Assembly (NCBI GenBank): GCA_003535955.1
Contig: DPZM01000024.1
Location: 1 to 38,908 of the forward strand
Length of the DNA: 38,908 nt
Reading direction: 5' to 3'
DNA from: Lachnospiraceae bacterium
Lineage (GTDB): Bacteria > Bacillota > Clostridia > Lachnospirales > Lachnospiraceae
The translations under genes were made by a program, and so were the position numbers. Shown piece after piece: positions 31,576 through 38,908 of the stretch (position 1 is its first letter; each line of letters opens with the position of its first letter). The notes below the pieces were generated by a model that did not search any database, had not been told where the DNA came from, and was given only the letters and a program-made list of their open reading frames with translations.

Positions 31576-33609
31576 ATGAATAAAAATACAGACATTAAGA
31601 ATCTTAAGGGCATAGGCGAAAAGACAGAAGCTTTATATCACAAGGTCGGCATATATACATATGGCGACCTTGTATATTATTACCCAAGGGATTATATACA
31701 ATACAATTCTCCCGTTCCCGCAGGAGAAGACATGGCAGGAAAGTTCGTTTTTGCAGATGTCAGGGTAGAAAGCCGGCCACTGCTCCGAAGGGCGGGGAAA
31801 ATGGCTGTCGTAACATGCAGGGTCAGGTCGGGAAACATACTGATCAATGCAGTATGGTTCCATATGCCATATATCACCAAAACACTGCTAAAGGGCGGCA
31901 CTTATGTTTTCGCAGGCACATTAAAAGAGTCAGGCGTTTCCTATTCCATGGACCAGCCCCTTGTCTTTACCCCCGCTCAGTATGATGAGATAAAAGATAC
32001 ACTGCAGCCCATATATCCTCTGACAAAAGGCCTTTCCAACAACTCCGTAAGAAAGTCCATAAAACAGGTTCTTAGGCTTATCGATGATAAGTCTATGGCA
32101 GATGGCATGTCTGAGAAAGAGGCTTTAAATACGATACATTTTCCAAAGGATCCGGAATCTCTTAAGAAAGCAAGAGAGGCTCTTGTTTTTGAGGAATTCC
32201 TTCTGTTTATATTACGTCTTAAGCTTCTCAAAGCCGAAAACATTAAGGCTGAGAATGACTTTGAAATTCATAAAAGAGAAGAAACAGATAAGCTTATAAG
32301 CAATCTACCCTACGAACTCACACAGGCACAGCTTCGTACTTTTAAAGAAGTGGAGAACGATCTGACCCGTAAAACCTCAATGAGCAGGCTCATACAGGGG
32401 GATGTCGGGAGCGGAAAGACCATAATCGCTTTTCTCGCGTGCATAACGGTGGCCCTTAACGGGTATCAGTCTGTAATAATGGTACCTACCGAGATACTTG
32501 CCGGGCAGCATATGGATTCATTTGCAAGACTTGCGGAATCAAACGGACTCATGATCCCCGCATGCCTGCTTACGGGTTCCATGACACAGGCTCAGAAACG
32601 GAAGGCCTATGAGAGGATAGAGAGAGGAGAGGTTAAGCTTATCATCGGTACTCATGCTGTGTTTCAGGAGAAGGTCATTTATAACGATCTGGCTCTTGTG
32701 GTCACGGATGAGCAGCACAGGTTCGGTGTAAGACAGAGGGAGACATTGACGGCTAAGGGTAATAAATGCATGCCCCATGTGCTTGTAATGAGCGCGACGC
32801 CGATACCCAGGACCCTGGCTATAATGCTATACGGTGATCTTGACATATCCGTAATAGATGAGCTGCCTGCAAGAAGGCTTCCGATAAAGAACTGCGTTGT
32901 CGGGACAGGTTACAGAAAGAAGGCATACGAATTCATTGAAGGAGAAGTCAGAAAGGGTCATCAGGCATATGTTATCTGTCCGATGGTAGAAGAGAGTGAA
33001 GGTACGGACCTTAAGGATGTTGTCAATTATTCCGACGAGATAAGGGCCGGGATGAGTGAAGACATAAGGATAGAATACCTCCATGGGAAGATGAAGGCGG
33101 CTAAAAAGGACGAGATAATGAAGAAGTTTCTGAATAAGAATATTGATGTCCTTGTTTCCACGACTGTAATAGAAGTAGGTGTAAATGTTCCCAATGCAAC
33201 GGTTATGATGATAGAGAATTCCGAGAGGTTCGGTCTTGCGCAGCTTCATCAGCTCAGGGGCCGGATAGGAAGAGGGGACGCCCAGTCCTACTGCATCTTT
33301 ATAGACTGCAATGAATCCGAAAAAAGCAGGGAAAGGCTTGATATACTTAATAAGTCCAATGATGGTTTCTTTATCGCAGGTGAAGATCTTAAGCTGCGCG
33401 GGCCCGGTGATCTCTTCGGTATAAGACAGAGCGGTGAGATGCAGTTTAAGCTTGCGGATATATACAGTGATTCAGAGGTACTTATCAGGGCATCAAGGAA
33501 GGCAGATGAGATGCTCAAGGTCGATCCCCGCCTTGAGTCGGCCGGGAATCGGCAAATAAGGGAACGTCTTTGTGAACTTGCGGACACCTCATCCCTTTAT
33601 TCCTTGTGA
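31576..33609 (+). CDS. recG: ATP-dependent DNA helicase RecG
   Basis: Wedge domain N-terminus, Walker A GDVGSGKT, DEQH box VTDEQHRFGV, QLHQLRGRIGRG, TRG-like region. Confidence 0.95.
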   Translation: MNKNTDIKNLKGIGEKTEALYHKVGIYTYGDLVYYYPRDYIQYNSPVPAGEDMAGKFVFADVRVESRPLLRRAGKMAVVTCRVRSGNILINAVWFHMPYITKTLLKGGTYVFAGTLKESGVSYSMDQPLVFTPAQYDEIKDTLQPIYPLTKGLSNNSVRKSIKQVLRLIDDKSMADGMSEKEALNTIHFPKDPESLKKAREALVFEEFLLFILRLKLLKAENIKAENDFEIHKREETDKLISNLPYELTQAQLRTFKEVENDLTRKTSMSRLIQGDVGSGKTIIAFLACITVALNGYQSVIMVPTEILAGQHMDSFARLAESNGLMIPACLLTGSMTQAQKRKAYERIERGEVKLIIGTHAVFQEKVIYNDLALVVTDEQHRFGVRQRETLTAKGNKCMPHVLVMSATPIPRTLAIMLYGDLDISVIDELPARRLPIKNCVVGTGYRKKAYEFIEGEVRKGHQAYVICPMVEESEGTDLKDVVNYSDEIRAGMSEDIRIEYLHGKMKAAKKDEIMKKFLNKNIDVLVSTTVIEVGVNVPNATVMMIENSERFGLAQLHQLRGRIGRGDAQSYCIFIDCNESEKSRERLDILNKSNDGFFIAGEDLKLRGPGDLFGIRQSGEMQFKLADIYSDSEVLIRASRKADEMLKVDPRLESAGNRQIRERLCELADTSSLYSL

Positions 33610-34070
33610 AAAACAGCAGATTGTTTCGGATACATAAAACTGCGGGAAGCCTCCAACGGAGTGTTCATTTTCTTGAATAACTCCACCTGCTTTTTAAGAC
33701 AATTACATACAGTCCATTGGCCATGACGCTTATGAGCTTTGACCATACGTGCTTCAAGCAGACACGTGGTTACACTTTTTCCATCAAGCTCTGCTGCGGC
33801 TGCTTCAACTTCCTGATGTATAAGAGCTGCTACAAGCATGATGAATGCAAGCCCCTGCGTTTTGTAATAATCCTCTACATAAAGAGAATTATATCCGGCC
33901 TTGTTTTTGAAATAGTTGTAGAAGGTTTCGATAGTCCAGCGCTTCTTGTATAACTCATAAACCTCTTGAGGAGTTTTATCTTCGAGACAGGTCTGAAGCA
34001 CCGTGACACCCATATAGTACTTTGCTTTCTCGAAGCCTTCGCGTGTGTATGATTTATCACCGCGCTGCAT
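33597..34070 (-). mobile_element. IS remnant: 3' fragment of an IS4/IS1634-like DDE transposase gene (N-terminal catalytic part missing)
   Basis: 157-aa ORF with the YELYKKRWTIETFYNYFKN motif (the Y-x2-R-x3-E block that carries the last DDE Glu in IS4-type enzymes). No upstream continuation. Overlaps the recG stop convergently by 13 nt. Confidence 0.7.
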
Positions 34071-34646
34071 ATGTCGCAGGTGCCTACCGTGATCAGGCAG
34101 GGGCTGATATAGCCATCGTAAACAGCGGCGGCATCCGTGCCGGCATAGAAAAAGGTGATGTCACGTATGGAAATATCCTGAAGGTGCATCCCTATGGGAA
34201 TATGCTCTGCGTACTGGAAGTATCCTGACAGCAGATATTGGATACCCTGGAGTGGGGATGCAGATCCCTTCCGACGGAGAATGGCGCATTTCCACAGGTT
34301 TCGGGGATCAGCTTTGATATAGACGTCAGCATTGATAATCCATGCCGGGAAGACGAAAACGCGATGTTCGCAGGAATCAAGGGTAAACGCAGGGTACAGA
34401 ATGTCATGGTAGGAGATGAACCGTTGGATCCGAAGAAGGCTTATACTCTGGCGGGAAATAATTATATGCTCCAGGAGCATGGAGACGGATACACGATGTT
34501 TGATGATTCTCCGCTTCTGCAGGATAGCATCAAGCTCGACAACCAGGTGCTGATCGACTATAATAGTAGATACTCTGGGAGGCGTGATCGGGGAAAAATA
34601 CAATGATCTCTACGGACAGGGGCGGATCCGGATCATAGGTGAATGA
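34071..34646 (+). pseudogene. 5'-nucleotidase C-terminal domain remnant (5'-truncated, one in-frame TGA, one frameshift)
   Basis: ADIAIVNSGGIRAGIEKGDVTYGNILKVHPYGN, EVS*QQILDTLEWG (TGA at 34226-34228). PQVSGISF, TLAGNNYMLQEHGDGYTMF. The frame switches near 34558-34570 to TLGGVIGEKYNDLYGQGRIRIIGE* (stop 34644-34646). The 5' boundary is approximate. Confidence 0.75.
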
Positions 34647-34733: not shown

Positions 34734-37430
34734 ATGAACACGAATGAGCGCAGCCTACATTTATATGATCTTATCATAAACAGCGCACCGCTGAACTTTC
34801 TTGAGGACGAGAGCGGGGACGCGATAAAAGCAGTATTTGATAAAGAACCCGGGATATCCGGCCTTCTGTCTGACGGCTTTATCAATGATATGAAGCGGGC
34901 CTTAAGAAAACGTATGGCGGACGTATTTCTGAGATCTACGAGCGATGTCCTTGTCAGGCAGATGCGGATAATAGATCCGGTCGGTGCGGCAGATCCTTTA
35001 AAGGCTGATGACGATATAGTCTATCAGGCCATGGAGAAAACGGAAGGGATCATCGGGTGCGACGGCAGCTATTATTACGGGAAATATCCTTTTATCCGCG
35101 AATTTACGGATATCATGCGAACAAACTTTACAGACAGCCTCGTCAGGTTTCTGAATGATTTTCTTACGGCAAAGTCCTCTGTTGAGACGCAGCTTTTCGG
35201 AGGCAGTGAGATAACCCGGCTCGAAGGTCTTCTGGGGCAGGGAGGAGATTACCACCGTCACGGGAGGTCGGTTTTCGGCGTAAAGACCAATGCAGGGAAT
35301 TTCTATTACAAGCCCCATGACGGCCGGCTGGATGTGCTGTATCACACCCTGATAGATGAATTCTTTTCCGATTGTACCGTGGCGGCTGACTGCGTTACGG
35401 GGAGGGATTACGGATTTGTAAACGAGCTTGTCACCGCGCCGCTTAAGGGCAGGGAGGAGCTTCCTCTATACTATGCCAACTTCGGAAGGCTGACAGCATT
35501 ATTTCACGGCATAGGGGCAATCGATATGCACCTTGGAAATATCATTCCGAGCGGCATAAAGCCCTGTGCCGTTGATCTGGAAACCATGTTCAGGCCCGAG
35601 GCCGGAAAGCTGACGAGGAATGGAGCCGCATCGAAGGCTGTCCCCATAAGGAACAGCAGAAATGTCATTAGAACGGGGGTTTTGCCCGCTTGTAACCGCG
35701 TCATCGGAATGTTTTCCCCCTTGCACAGGTCGAAGTGGTTTCAGGAAGATCATCTGCCTGAGTGCGGCGGTGAGCTTTTTACGGTTGAGGGCTTTGAAAA
35801 GGATTTTTTATGCGGCTTTGAGGAGGGGTATGAGCGTGTCCTTAAAAACAGGGACAGGATCAGGGAATTGTTCCGTTCCTCAAACGAATGTGAACTTCGT
35901 TTTCTCCTTAGGAATACGGAGTACTATAACCGCTTGCGGCAGTATTTATGGACGCCGAAGGCATTGAGCGACAGAAAGGAGCAGCGGCGGATCTTAGACC
36001 GTCTCCGCGTTCCCTTTACCAAAGTAAATATCGATGTGAACGAGGACATAGTAAGATATGAGGAGAAATGCCTGCTGGAGGGAGATATCCCCTATTACTG
36101 CACCGCCCTTGACGGCAGAGATCTTTGTGGCTGCTCTGTTAAGGAGGTCATCGCATACGGCTTCATGGAAAAAAGCGCAAGGGAAATGACCTTTGAGAAT
36201 CTTTCAGGGCTTTGCGATGAGGAAAAGCTTTATGAATGCGATGTCATACGAAACGCGTTCAGAAACGCGCCGAAAGATACCCTTCATGAAGCCCCGGGAA
36301 CAAAGCTGCGCCTTTGTGAGGATAAAGACGGACTCTGCGGGAGTATAAGGAGCCTGATCCCTGAGATCTGCGACCATATTTTGGAGAGTCAGATCCGAAG
36401 ACCGGGAGGGAAGGTCATGTTTTTCCCCTATACACCGCACCTTGAGGGGAAGATAGCCTGCACCGACGCGATCTATCCCGCTGAAATGGCAGGGATACTG
36501 CATTTGGCGTATAGCCACGGCTTTTTGACCGATCAGGATATCCTCGCTAAAGCGTTATCCGCTGTCAGGGACCAGATAGAACGCTGGCAGACGGAGGATG
36601 AGGTTTACCTGCGCGCGGAGACAGACCTTGGTTTTTGCGAAGGGATAGCGGCGATCATCACGGCATTGGACGGTATTCCCGCGGCAGATGACATTTATGC
36701 GCAATTACTGAACCTTGTCGCAGAAAAACGGCTGTATCTGATTGAAAAAAAGGAACAGACGAGGAAGCTTTCGGAGCTTATGATCGCCATAGGCAGGGCT
36801 AAAACGGCATATTCAAAAAAAACGGACCTGCTCCGAAGCTGCGCGGACTCCCTGAACGCCTGCTTTGATGCCGGAGACAGTGACGCAATGGGACTTGCGG
36901 CGGCAGGAGCGGCTTTTGCGATCTCCTGCGGCTTGTTTAAGGAAGAAAAATATAAGGAATATGCAGAGAATTCGTTTGAGCGCGTCAATTCATTATTTAA
37001 CGAAAAAATATGCGGCTGGCCGAAGGGCGGCGAGACCTTTAAATGGATGCCGAAGCGCTCGGAGTATTCACCGTATATAGGGCTTTGCGCCTGCCTGGCG
37101 GCTGATGTGAGTGAGCATGCAGGGCAGACGGCGGAGCTTTCGGTAAAAAGTGTTTTGAACGAGAGTGAACTCAGGTATTGTGACAGCTTATACCACGGGA
37201 ATGCGCTGACGGTTAAATTCCTGGCAAGCGCGGCAGGCGTGCTTGACCGCCCGGACATAATGGAGCATGCAGGAAATATTGCTTTTACAATGATGGACCG
37301 GAAAAACGAAAACGGCGCGTTTCACACAAGCCCTGCAGGCATACGGGATTTCTTTGACGCATCCTCTGTTTTCGGAGTGCCCGGTATCGGCGCAACGCTT
37401 TTACAGAGCATTACAGCTATTGGATGCTGA
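34734..37430 (+). CDS. LanM-type class II lanthipeptide synthetase-like protein (dehydratase domain plus LanC-like domain with degenerate motifs)
   Basis: 898 aa. DUF4135-type blocks GDYHRHGRSVFGVKTNAGNFYYKPHDGRLDVLY and IDMHLGNIIPSGIKPCAVDLETMF. C-terminal alpha-toroid-like repeats (AGILHLA, GFCEGIAAI, GLAAAGAAF, GLCACLAA, LYHGNAL, GVPGIGATLL). Confidence 0.8.
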   Translation: MNTNERSLHLYDLIINSAPLNFLEDESGDAIKAVFDKEPGISGLLSDGFINDMKRALRKRMADVFLRSTSDVLVRQMRIIDPVGAADPLKADDDIVYQAMEKTEGIIGCDGSYYYGKYPFIREFTDIMRTNFTDSLVRFLNDFLTAKSSVETQLFGGSEITRLEGLLGQGGDYHRHGRSVFGVKTNAGNFYYKPHDGRLDVLYHTLIDEFFSDCTVAADCVTGRDYGFVNELVTAPLKGREELPLYYANFGRLTALFHGIGAIDMHLGNIIPSGIKPCAVDLETMFRPEAGKLTRNGAASKAVPIRNSRNVIRTGVLPACNRVIGMFSPLHRSKWFQEDHLPECGGELFTVEGFEKDFLCGFEEGYERVLKNRDRIRELFRSSNECELRFLLRNTEYYNRLRQYLWTPKALSDRKEQRRILDRLRVPFTKVNIDVNEDIVRYEEKCLLEGDIPYYCTALDGRDLCGCSVKEVIAYGFMEKSAREMTFENLSGLCDEEKLYECDVIRNAFRNAPKDTLHEAPGTKLRLCEDKDGLCGSIRSLIPEICDHILESQIRRPGGKVMFFPYTPHLEGKIACTDAIYPAEMAGILHLAYSHGFLTDQDILAKALSAVRDQIERWQTEDEVYLRAETDLGFCEGIAAIITALDGIPAADDIYAQLLNLVAEKRLYLIEKKEQTRKLSELMIAIGRAKTAYSKKTDLLRSCADSLNACFDAGDSDAMGLAAAGAAFAISCGLFKEEKYKEYAENSFERVNSLFNEKICGWPKGGETFKWMPKRSEYSPYIGLCACLAADVSEHAGQTAELSVKSVLNESELRYCDSLYHGNALTVKFLASAAGVLDRPDIMEHAGNIAFTMMDRKNENGAFHTSPAGIRDFFDASSVFGVPGIGATLLQSITAIGC

Positions 37431-37467
37431 ATACATATATAACTAAATGATGAAAGGAGAAATGAAC

Positions 37468-37578
37468 ATGAACGAGAACATAAGGAAATTTATCGAGAAG
37501 GTGGCGGCGGACGAAGAGCTGCAGGCTAAGATGAAGTCCTTCACCGATATGGATGAGGCCTATGCGTTTGCGAGCTGA
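37468..37578 (+). CDS. Nif11-like leader peptide fragment (36 aa, no double-Gly site, no core)
   Basis: MNENIRKFIEKVAADEELQAKMKSFTDMDEAYAFAS*. AGGAG 8 nt upstream. By my hand alignment 84 of 108 nt are identical to 38506-38613. Its TGA (37576-37578) is 1 nt from the methyltransferase ATG. Confidence 0.5.
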   Translation: MNENIRKFIEKVAADEELQAKMKSFTDMDEAYAFAS

Positions 37579-37579
37579 T

Positions 37580-38509
37580 ATGGCAGAAAGTAAAAAATGG
37601 TCGGTCTATTTTCAAAACCCGGAATTCCTGGAGCGGACACGGTTATTTATGATCCACCCGGATATGTTTCCCCTTGTACGCAGGTGGTGCGGGATAAAGG
37701 ACGGTGTCAGGCTCCTTGACGTCGGATGCGGCACGGGATATTTTACAAGGCTTCTGTCATCGGGAGGGGAGATGGTTACCGCTTCGGGAATTGACCTTGA
37801 GGAGCCCTTTATTGAGTATGCAAAAAAAGAGGCTGCGGAGCAGGGGCTTCCCATTGAATTTATCGTTGGCGACGCTCTTTCCCTTCCCTTTGAGGATAAT
37901 ACCTTCGATGCAGTCGTAAGCCACACCTTTTTCACAAGCATTCCCGATCCTGAAAGGGCAATGGCGGAAATGATCCGTGTAATAAAGCCCGGAGGCATCA
38001 TATCCTCCGTAACGCCCATGTCCTTTGCCCCTGAATGCACCACAGGCGGAGAGTGGGGAGCGGAAAAAGACTGGATCAAGGAATTCAATATCCTTTTTGC
38101 AAGGATTTACGGGGCTTACTTTGTCATTGATTCGCTCAGAAGCCGCCTGGGCGGCTTGAAGCCGAAGGCTGTGCCGGGATTTTTTTCAAAGCACGGGCTT
38201 AAAAATGTCAGTGCCTATTCCATAGGAAAGATATTTGCGCTTTCAAGCCGGGCAGTTTCTGATGAAGATAAGTTGCGCTACATAAGGCTTTATCAGGAAT
38301 CTGAGGATAAAAAGCTGAAGGTATATGAAGAGCTTCCCGAAATGAGGGAAAAGGTCACGGAGGAGGACAGGAAGCGTTTCAGAGAACTGTTGGACAGGAA
38401 ATGTGAATGGCTGAAGGAGCATATTCATGACAATGACACATGGGAGTGGCAGGGCGGAGCAAATCTGCTTGTCACGGGGGTGTGTGAGAAGAAAGGAGAA
38501 AAATTATGA
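37580..38509 (+). CDS. class I SAM-dependent methyltransferase
   Basis: Motif I LLDVGCGTGYFTRLL, acidic loop GIDLEE, FDAVVSHTFF, IKPGGII. ATG 37580 preferred over listed 37553, which overlaps the leader-like ORF. Confidence 0.85.
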   Translation: MAESKKWSVYFQNPEFLERTRLFMIHPDMFPLVRRWCGIKDGVRLLDVGCGTGYFTRLLSSGGEMVTASGIDLEEPFIEYAKKEAAEQGLPIEFIVGDALSLPFEDNTFDAVVSHTFFTSIPDPERAMAEMIRVIKPGGIISSVTPMSFAPECTTGGEWGAEKDWIKEFNILFARIYGAYFVIDSLRSRLGGLKPKAVPGFFSKHGLKNVSAYSIGKIFALSSRAVSDEDKLRYIRLYQESEDKKLKVYEELPEMREKVTEEDRKRFRELLDRKCEWLKEHIHDNDTWEWQGGANLLVTGVCEKKGEKL

Positions 38510-38805
38510 ACTAAAACGTTATGAAACTGATACAGAAGGTGGCTGAGGACGAAGAGCTGTAGGCTAAGATGCAGGCTTTTACCGACGCGGATGAGGCTTA
38601 TGAGTTCGCAAGGTCCATTCAGGATGGGTTTACGAAGGAGGAGTTTGTCACAACCATGGAGGAGCTTAGGGAAAAAATCTCCGACAGCGGTGAGCTCACA
38701 GATGATGATCTTGCCGCCGCCGCGGGGGGAATGTCCACAGCTAGTATTAGTGTTGTAGCTAGCGTGGCTGGTACCGTAGCTATTGGCATAGCGTTTGCTG
38801 TCTGA
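38506..38805 (+). pseudogene. Nif11-like leader / double-Gly RiPP precursor paralogue with two in-frame stops near its 5' end (open part 38569..38805, 78 aa)
   Basis: AGGAG 7 nt before ATG 38506. Translation: MN*NVMKLIQKVAEDEEL*AKMQAFTDADEAYEFARSIQDGFTKEEFVTTMEELREKISDSGELTDDDLAAAAGG-MSTASISVVASVAGTVAIGIAFAV*. TAA at 38512-38514, TAG at 38560-38562. It could still be expressed from ATG 38569, which lacks a clear SD. Confidence 0.6.
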
Positions 38806-38899
38806 TGCCGCAGGCGGATTGAGCGCCTGTCCGGTTAAGGAGGAGAGAGATGTCAAATTATTCAAAATACAAGGAGAGAACTCGGAAGGAGGCATGATC

Positions 38900-38908
38900 A
38901 TGAACGAA
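38900..38908 (+). CDS. start of a third Nif11-like leader precursor gene (cut by window end)
   Basis: AGGAGG (38887-38892) 7 nt before ATG 38900. ATGATCATGAACGAA closely mirrors ATGAACATGAACGAG at 37462-37476. Confidence 0.35.

Follow-up and report, generated by a model that had tools for sequence, protein, structure and literature searches.

A partly eroded relative of the lah RiPP gene cluster at the end of a Lachnospiraceae contig

Results

Gene content of the locus

The DNA considered here is contig DPZM01000024.1 (38,908 nt), from a metagenome-assembled genome (MAG) of a Lachnospiraceae bacterium (GCA_003535955.1); this whole stretch is referred to below as the window. Its last 4.2 kb (34734–38908) carry part of a gene cluster for a peptide made on ribosomes and modified after translation (RiPP): a gene for an 898-aa LanM-like enzyme, a gene for an S-adenosylmethionine (SAM)-dependent methyltransferase of the LahSB type, and three precursor loci with Nif11-type leaders, called psiA1, psiA2 and A3 (Table 1). 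An earlier reading made without database searches (the sequence-only reading) had noticed the LanM-type enzyme, the class I SAM methyltransferase and the three leader starts in what looked like a clostridial context. It had suspected a relationship with the lah cluster of Lachnospiraceae bacterium C6A11 and expected a transporter/protease and further precursors beyond the window. These points are borne out by the analysis presented here, and the DUF4135, LANC_like and Nif11 profiles all give matches over their cut-offs. The cluster is a partly eroded relative within the already known lah family, and the kind of system is not new. The window probably holds the 5′ part of a lah-type cluster of an uncultured rumen member of the Lachnospiraceae, orthologous in content and order to that of C6A11.

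The remainder of the cluster was found on contigs from other assemblies. L009 (ODAI011498755.1, European Nucleotide Archive, ENA), recovered by scanning with the first 34 nt of leader copy 3, matches the final 349 nt of the window with 100% identity and holds the whole A3 gene. L001 and L003 run 30 nt past the window end in agreement with L009, and L002 (from Logan) shows no mismatch with the window over 4.1 kb and one with L009 over 1.17 kb. An identical 898-aa protein is listed at NCBI as hypothetical, from a Lachnospiraceae MAG, and 4 other contigs also encode it. Together, the window, L009 and L002 give the composite order LanM-like dehydratase, psiA1, LahSB-like methyltransferase, psiA2, YcaO stub, A3, broken YcaO, FMN-reductase-type flavoprotein, second YcaO remnant, HlyD, LahT-like peptidase/ATP-binding cassette (ABC) exporter and second ABC protein. 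The broken YcaO gene and the flavoprotein gene, which lay outside the view of the sequence-only reading, also belong to the cluster.

The LanM-like enzyme

The 898-aa protein matches the Pfam profile DUF4135 (178 bits, E=3.9e-52) and, marginally, LANC_like (23.5 bits; cut-off 23.2), and with the NCBIfam LanM model TIGR03897 it scores 233 bits, under the cut-off of 304. The best Foldseek matches of its AlphaFold (AF2) model (pLDDT 93.6, pTM 0.92) are LicM2 (6ST5) and CylM (5DZT), over the full length and with E~1e-26; the C-terminal toroid gives further matches, to LanCL proteins and to class III/IV synthetases. The kinase/eliminase motifs GDxH..G, YKP(K/H), DxHxxN, D-x-E-T and R..R.T align with those of CylM. 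In the cyclase-like domain MGLAAAG stands for GxAHG, YIGLCA for WCHG and LYHG for LCHG, and neither the Cys-Cys-His zinc site nor the acid/base His of a true LanM is present. The motifs are likewise lost in LahM1 and LahM2; two canonical LanMs recovered by the same search retain all three. Among 80 family matches the zinc ligands are lost throughout (80/80), WCHG occurs in none and CHG is kept in 3.

The protein is 44–45% identical to LahM1 over its full length and 28% identical to LahM2, and it shares with LahM1 the pattern of LYHG without WCHG. Judged by these motifs it is an enzyme of the LanMbC type described in 2023 by Pei, Zhu & Nair, who list lah among the LanM–YcaO hybrid clusters with a zinc-ligand-free LanM (network 36; PMC10676384). 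Since the cyclase zinc ligands are missing and the cores hold 0 or 1 Cys, no thioether rings are expected, in agreement with what had been proposed from the sequence alone. Position 197, a Gly in this protein, falls in the motif YYKPHDC, adjoining the predicted kinase Lys. Accelerated decay of the gene was considered and rejected because changes at family-conserved sites (6/110) equal the family median.

The precursor genes

The psiA1 reading frame encodes MNENIRKFIEKVAADEELQAKMKSFTDMDEAYAFAS and ends in TGA at 37576–37578. It is a 36-aa leader only, with neither a GG site nor a core, and departs from its paralogues directly after DEAYAFA. A ribosome binding site (RBS), AAAGGAG, lies at 37452–37458, and Pfam Nif11 matches residues 3–35 over its cut-off (29.2 bits). 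In C6A11 and in the related loci L011 and L013, unlike here, a complete precursor gene with its own stop and a spacer lies upstream of the methyltransferase gene.

The conceptual frame of psiA2 reads MN, a first stop (TAA, 38512–38514), NVMKLIQKVAEDEEL, a second stop (TAG, 38560–38562) and AKMQAFTD...DDDLAAAAGG, followed by the core MSTASISVVASVAGTVAIGIAFAV. This is the core on which the sequence-only reading was built: its composition (six Ser/Thr, no Cys) was given correctly, and both stops had been marked there. However, it lies in a pseudogene, while the intact precursor A3 has one Cys. Each stop differs by a single base from the codon of the paralogue (GAA and CAG, respectively). The longest clean open reading frame (ORF) comprises 78 aa from the Met at 38569; it has no recognizable RBS, does not include the leader part matching Pfam Nif11 and alone gives no Pfam match. 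With the stops repaired, psiA2 reaches 24.7 bits with Pfam Nif11 and 31.8 bits with TIGR03798 (cut-off 32.3). Because of the two premature stops and the lack of an RBS and of a Nif11-matching leader part in the residual ORF, the Cys-free core has to be regarded as that of a pseudogene product. The leader-coding stretches of psiA1 and psiA2 form a 107-nt direct repeat of 79% identity.

Both psiA2 stops are identical in the independent metagenome assemblies L001–L004 and L009, and sequencing error was rejected on this ground. An alternative code or read-through was also rejected, as TAA and TAG end ordinary housekeeping ORFs (14/31 and 3/31, respectively, of the long ORFs in the window). Of the three precursor genes, psiA1 and psiA2 are dead.

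A3 starts with MNE at the window end, behind the RBS GGAAGGAGG (38884–38892). As read on L009 it is intact and encodes 104 aa, with a Nif11-type leader of ~75 aa ending in DEDLALAAGG and the core LDWDADRIASMACSSVLGSAAIAATLGGI, which has one Cys and several Ser. It scores 34.9 bits with TIGR03798 (cut-off 32.3) and passes Pfam Nif11 with 28.4 bits. In the window and the contigs that continue it, A3 is the sole intact precursor gene of this organism.

The methyltransferase

The 309-aa methyltransferase matches LahSB (PDB 6UAK, ‘SAM dependent methyltransferase LahSB’), with phmmer E=1.4e-135 and, by BLASTP, 64% identity over 303 aa without a gap. Pfam assigns it to Methyltransf_11/25/31, of the class I SAM type. 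The mechanically called ORF spans 37553–38509, and alignment with LahSB places the true start at the ATG at 37580 (MAESKKW). LahSB needs no leader to methyl-esterify the C-terminal carboxylate of LahA2-5, which end in Met, Ile or Val (PMC11285071, PMC10952241, PMC10373908). From this similarity the window enzyme is predicted to be a peptide C-terminal carboxyl O-methyltransferase. The C-terminal residues of A3 (Ile) and psiA2 (Val) both fall within the substrate range of LahSB.

Packing around this gene is tight: 1 nt separates the TGA of psiA1 from the methyltransferase ATG, and at the 3′ end the stop codon overlaps with the start of psiA2 (ATGA). The methyltransferase ATG has no RBS of its own, and its translation may hinge on translation of the psiA1 stump.

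YcaO remnants and the 61-nt repeat

A 61-nt direct repeat consists of an intergenic RBS and the opening 34 nt of a YcaO gene. In the window these 34 nt form an orphan stub (38850–38883, MSNYSKYKERT); the second copy (60/61 identical) comes after A3, where the YcaO gene proper continues from it. This repeat accounts for the ends of the window, L001 and L003 25–55 nt past it and for the jump of L002 from the first copy into YcaO, by which A3 is skipped. L002 was not accepted as proof that A3 is absent, as the skip sits exactly at the repeat and may be an assembly shortcut.

The first YcaO gene lies in two frames in both L002 and L009: residues ~211–273 of the C6A11 orthologue are deleted and there is a frameshift. 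Over the retained parts it is 56–60% identical to the lah orthologue. An assembly artefact in L002 was rejected here: L009 has the identical deletion junction, with only ~5 nt of microhomology, and the deletion is therefore taken to be real and not a k-mer shortcut. The second YcaO gene is represented on L002 by a frameshifted C-terminal half only. An intact adjoining YcaO, as in lah, is not found in this cluster, but the presence of homologous YcaO remnants indicates a lah-type ancestry. LahM2, or any second LanM-like gene, is absent from the cluster on the continuing contig L002.

In a related strain (L010, JGI Ga0247608_10118936, ~87% nucleotide identity) the YcaO gene is intact. On this contig (1–2519, minus strand) A3 is flanked by the 3′ end of a first YcaO gene on one side and by a second, intact YcaO gene on the other. 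The YcaO C-termini there are near-duplicates in an apparently tandem layout, unlike that of the window lineage.

Flavoprotein and exporter

The flavoprotein (259 aa) belongs to the FMN_red family (PF03358, 73.9 bits), is 60% identical to that of lah and, with residues 1–256 aligned and no frameshift, is intact. LanJB reductases are assigned to the same Pfam family (PMC7268733, PMC11519912). A PDB sequence search with the flavoprotein returned only uncharacterized proteins of the FMN-reductase fold, and any role given to it is for this reason a putative one. Such a flavoprotein accompanies the dehydratase in every family locus whose sampled stretch reaches far enough. L015 (10001–19447, context of P0041) encodes a zinc-free LanM-like protein, an FMN_red flavoprotein, a radical SAM/SPASM enzyme and another DUF4135 protein, of 618 aa; the 10 kb to each side of the LanM-like gene hold neither YcaO nor methyltransferase. 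Judging from L015, the flavoprotein seems to be tied to the dehydratase rather than to YcaO. In the present cluster, too, its gene has stayed intact with both YcaO genes dead.

The exporter is a peptidase-containing ABC transporter (PCAT) of the peptidase-C39 type. It matches TIGR03796 over positions 1–710 of 710 (983 bits; cut-off 853), and its protease domain matches LahT150 (6MPZ) with E=4.8e-51. LahT150 cuts Nif11-type leaders off at GG (PMC6363468). The NHLM HlyD and ABC1 models also score over their cut-offs, the HlyD protein having 609 aa, and the second ABC protein (ABC2) further downstream is full length.

The lah family and its precursors

The lah cluster is said to comprise LahA1-9, LahM1/LahM2, LahSB and LahT and to have been described by Huo et al. 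(2020, ChemBioChem 21:190) and Bobeica et al. (2019, eLife). A mature lah product was not found reported in our literature search. The C6A11 contig (JNKY01000013.1, L006), retrieved by a genome scan with the window methyltransferase and LahSB, has the order LahA, LahM1, four LahA, LahSB, YcaO, flavoprotein, LahM2, YcaO. Behind well-conserved leaders, its five LahA cores are MTTTDEAGLIGSLTTVASVAALSLSLSAM, TSTSACIARAATAATAAVTMSLLAV, LTTDEETLLMDGTFLGSAIVAASSAGAV, TITEGAKGFRASAGDEVDYSLFAATAI and IISEARGLKAVNGNSDNLTNFAAGAI; they hold 0 or 1 Cys and end in Met, Val or Ile. A leader hidden Markov model scan adds a sixth, weaker precursor ORF on this contig, without Cys.

Among ~45 precursors from nine loci, ~85% of the cores are Cys-free and none has more than 1 Cys. 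Given these proportions, a Cys-free core is the norm of the family, visible already in the published lah cluster, and is not the novel trait that the sequence-only reading had seen in it. The closest relative of the window cluster is L011, with 59% identity for the LanM-like protein and 72% for the methyltransferase. It has seven Cys-poor precursors, one of which (...EIGTATAAGVATATGAVAIGIAAAV) closely resembles psiA2.

L016 (6938–8764 and 12837–15556, context of P0007) is a lah-type cluster whose Nif11-leader precursors have cores of 83–116 aa, far longer than the 19–30 aa cores of other members; these are internally repetitive, rich in Ser, Lys, Ala and Val, Cys-free, and end in ...KALAV or ...KAFSI. 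The relatives stem from metagenomes of rumen and gut and from MAGs that their sources name as Lachnospiraceae, Ruminiclostridium, Eubacteriales and Clostridia, with a single one from Synergistaceae. The latter, L008 (8144–16955, MAG RGIG3696, goat rumen), lies outside the Firmicutes and carries a complete lah-type set of YcaO, methyltransferase, two LanM-like genes and FMN_red flavoprotein, an occurrence that suggests horizontal transfer within the rumen. Partner-switching regulators (STAS anti-sigma antagonist, SpoIIE phosphatase, HATPase kinase, and sigma factor of the extracytoplasmic function (ECF) type) border many clusters of the family, for example L011 (2217–2793), L013 (151–450), L014 (6945–9038) and L015 (19521–22700); none adjoins the cluster of the window.

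Comparison with known systems

The window cluster shares with lah of C6A11 an orthologous methyltransferase, LanM-like protein, YcaO and flavoprotein, a LahT-like protease domain, and the local order precursors, methyltransferase, YcaO, flavoprotein. Both have Nif11-type double-Gly leaders, Cys-poor hydrophobic cores rich in Ser, Thr and Ala that end in Val, Ile or Met, and a zinc-free LanC-like domain. They differ in species, and protein identities are 44–64%: this is no near-identity to lah, although it is clearly the same kind of system. One LanM-like gene is found here and two there, both YcaO genes are disrupted here, and three precursor loci (one intact) contrast with nine. Here, moreover, a precursor stump abuts the methyltransferase start, precursor units lie between the methyltransferase and YcaO, and the transporter genes, including that for the 609-aa HlyD, are downstream instead of upstream.

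Likeness to the LanMbC/dehydrazole systems (carnazolamide, cca; Pei, Zhu & Nair 2023, PMC10676384) is found in the fusion of DUF4135 to a cyclase-like domain without zinc ligands and in an ancestral arrangement that puts the dehydratase beside YcaO. In contrast to the long NHLP-type leader and Ser/Thr/Cys-rich core of cca, the window leaders are of the Nif11 type, and cores of the family are rich in Ala, Gly, Ser and Thr and poor in Cys. The methyltransferase is predicted from its sequence to be of the C-terminal carboxyl type here, that of cca being an S-methyltransferase; YcaO, which in cca forms azoles together with the dehydrogenase CcaC, is non-functional here, and the flavoprotein is of the FMN_red type.

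As in the prochlorosins of marine cyanobacteria (ProcM/ProcA), diverse cores follow a conserved Nif11-type double-Gly leader and a single promiscuous LanM-family enzyme is combined with a PCAT-type exporter. ProcM, however, is a zinc-dependent cyclase that forms (methyl)lanthionines in Cys-containing cores, while the present system has no zinc site and almost no Cys, and belongs to another phylum and habitat. With bicereucin and carnolysin (LanM plus LanJB flavin reductase) it may share largely linear products with reducible dehydrated residues. The LanMs of those systems nevertheless retain a working cyclase, with at least one ring in one of the peptides, and their clusters have neither the C-terminal methyl ester nor YcaO; the reductase role in the window system would follow by analogy.

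Genomic surroundings

The cluster lies downstream of recG, which ends at 33609, with two gene remnants in between: the C-terminal fragment of an IS4 transposase and a frameshifted 5′-nucleotidase remnant (Table 1). This debris between the housekeeping block and the cluster suggests an insertion or rearrangement boundary, and the shift in GC content, from 44.6% in the housekeeping block to 49.8% in the cluster, is consistent with an acquired island.

A consensus scan returned one good promoter-like site, ~170 nt upstream of the LanM-like gene and within the 5′-nucleotidase remnant. The region as a whole has no more such sites than expected from shuffling, which makes the promoter evidence weak. 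The promoter/terminator scan was otherwise empty, with no terminator-like hairpin 3′ of the precursors. Scans of the entire window for Rfam families (gathering threshold) and for tRNA genes gave no matches.

Table 1. Features at and next to the lah-type cluster (window coordinates)
Feature	Position	Strand	Basis or remark
IS4/DDE_Tnp_1 transposase, C-terminal fragment	33597..34070	-	13-nt overlap with the recG stop
5′-nucleotidase C-domain remnant	34022..34606	+	split over two frames, frameshifted
Candidate sigma-70-type promoter, TCGACA-17-TATAAT (11/12)	34536..34564	+	consensus scan only; weak
LanM-like dehydratase, 898 aa, of the zinc-free LanMbC/LahM1 type	34734..37430	+	DUF4135 kinase/eliminase and LanC-like alpha/alpha-toroid without zinc ligands
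psiA1, Nif11-type leader-only stump, 36 aa	37468..37578	+	Pfam Nif11, direct reading
LahSB-type SAM-dependent methyltransferase, 309 aa	37580..38509	+	phmmer/BLASTP against 6UAK, Pfam
psiA2, Nif11-type precursor pseudogene	38506..38805	+	two in-frame premature stops
61-nt direct repeat copy 1, including orphan YcaO stub	38823..38883	+	L009, bridging the window end
Precursor A3 start (MNE), gene complete beyond the window	38900..38908	+	L009, L001, L003

Discussion

The reading that we favor, and consider likely, is that this lineage has lost the ancestral, YcaO-dependent step of the pathway and that the locus is an eroding or streamlined copy of the lah system. The substrate would be A3, with its Nif11-type double-Gly leader. 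As a member of its family, the LanM-like enzyme would phosphorylate Ser and Thr of the core and eliminate the phosphate to give dehydroalanine (Dha) and dehydrobutyrine (Dhb), without thioether rings; the loss of the zinc site and the intact kinase motifs are the observations that bear on this step. The flavoprotein may reduce dehydro residues to D-Ala or D-aminobutyrate (D-Abu), which is the weakest step of the scheme. The LahSB orthologue, by its 64% identity to the characterized enzyme, would methyl-esterify the C-terminal aliphatic residue, which is Ile in A3, and the LahT orthologue would, by homology, cleave after GG and export the peptide.

Several points weigh against this scheme. The architecture downstream of the window is taken from other assemblies of the same strain (0–1 mismatches) and lies outside the window itself. 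The LanJB-like role that the flavoprotein may play is drawn from its Pfam family and its co-occurrence only. Residue 197 of the LanM-like protein, Gly here, is Cys in 98% of 60 relatives. Finally, the carnazolamide dehydratase CcaM acts only on a Ser that precedes a YcaO-made azole (PMC10676384), and if this rule holds here the broken YcaO would idle the dehydratase.

This last point leads to the alternative that the cluster is a non-functional relic, in which the dehydratase requires azol(in)es, the YcaOs are dead, no mature product is made and the intact genes have simply not yet been hit. We regard this as possible but doubt it. It would account for the deletion and frameshift in the first YcaO gene, the remnant state of the second, the missing LahM2, the death of psiA1 and psiA2, the transposase fragment and 5′-nucleotidase remnant beside the cluster and the C197G change at a highly conserved site. 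Against this, ~10 kb of large genes are full length, namely those for the LanM-like protein (2.7 kb), methyltransferase, flavoprotein, HlyD, PCAT and ABC2. The lesions are moreover confined to genes with paralogues in the cluster, which suggests recombination between paralogues rather than random decay, and relatives of the L015 type lack YcaO over 10 kb to each side of the gene. Both the title of the lah paper and reviews reportedly speak of a LahM dehydratase studied with LahA in E. coli and leave YcaO unmentioned, which would suggest azole independence. If instead the lesions were assembly artefacts, produced across the precursor and YcaO repeats from a genome with an intact lah-like cluster, the breaks of the window, L001 and L003 at the 61-nt repeat and the skipping of A3 by L002 at that very place would be of one piece with them, the more so as paralogous genes are prone to chimeric joins and the 36 nt shared past the single repeat difference exceed a typical k-mer. 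This is nonetheless very unlikely: the stops and the psiA1–methyltransferase junction are single-copy and identical across the assemblies, from different runs and pipelines, that cover them, and the YcaO junction, the same in L002 and L009, has ~5 nt of microhomology, not enough for a k-mer shortcut.

An ordinary class II lanthipeptide cluster, in which Cys-containing precursors such as A3 acquire thioether rings and the Cys-free copy is a dead paralogue, appears extremely improbable. A3 does have one Cys and several Ser, the enzyme has the same overall fold as CylM and LicM2, and LANC_like passes its Pfam cut-off, if marginally. But the zinc ligands and the acid/base His that canonical LanMs keep are gone here, and likewise in 80/80 relatives, the NCBIfam LanM score falls under its cut-off, and the cores of the family are for the most part Cys-free and never carry more than a single Cys. 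Published relatives, too, are called ‘unusual’ synthetases or dehydratases without zinc ligands.

Returning to the favored reading of an eroding or streamlined lah copy, a narrower version of it, which we put forward tentatively and think rather unlikely, is a minimal lah pathway. Without both YcaO and LahM2, it would still turn A3 into a hydrophobic peptide that is linear, dehydrated (possibly with D-Ala/D-Abu) and methyl-esterified at its C-terminus. If this were true, the zinc-free LanMs of the lah branch would work azole-free, unlike CcaM, and the flavoprotein would partner the dehydratase and not YcaO. More speculatively still, the leader-only ORF psiA1 might be kept for coupled translation of the methyltransferase or as a leader acting in trans.

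The cluster adds one more divergent member (44–64% protein identity) to the lah family in rumen and gut Firmicutes, and its LahSB orthologue and LahT-like protease are further variants of enzymes that already serve peptide engineering. With YcaO and the second LanM-like gene gone and the rest intact, it represents a natural experiment that could help to assign enzyme partnerships within the family, with the dehydratase, flavoprotein and methyltransferase on one side and YcaO on the other, and could show whether the zinc-free LanMs of the lah branch need azoles.

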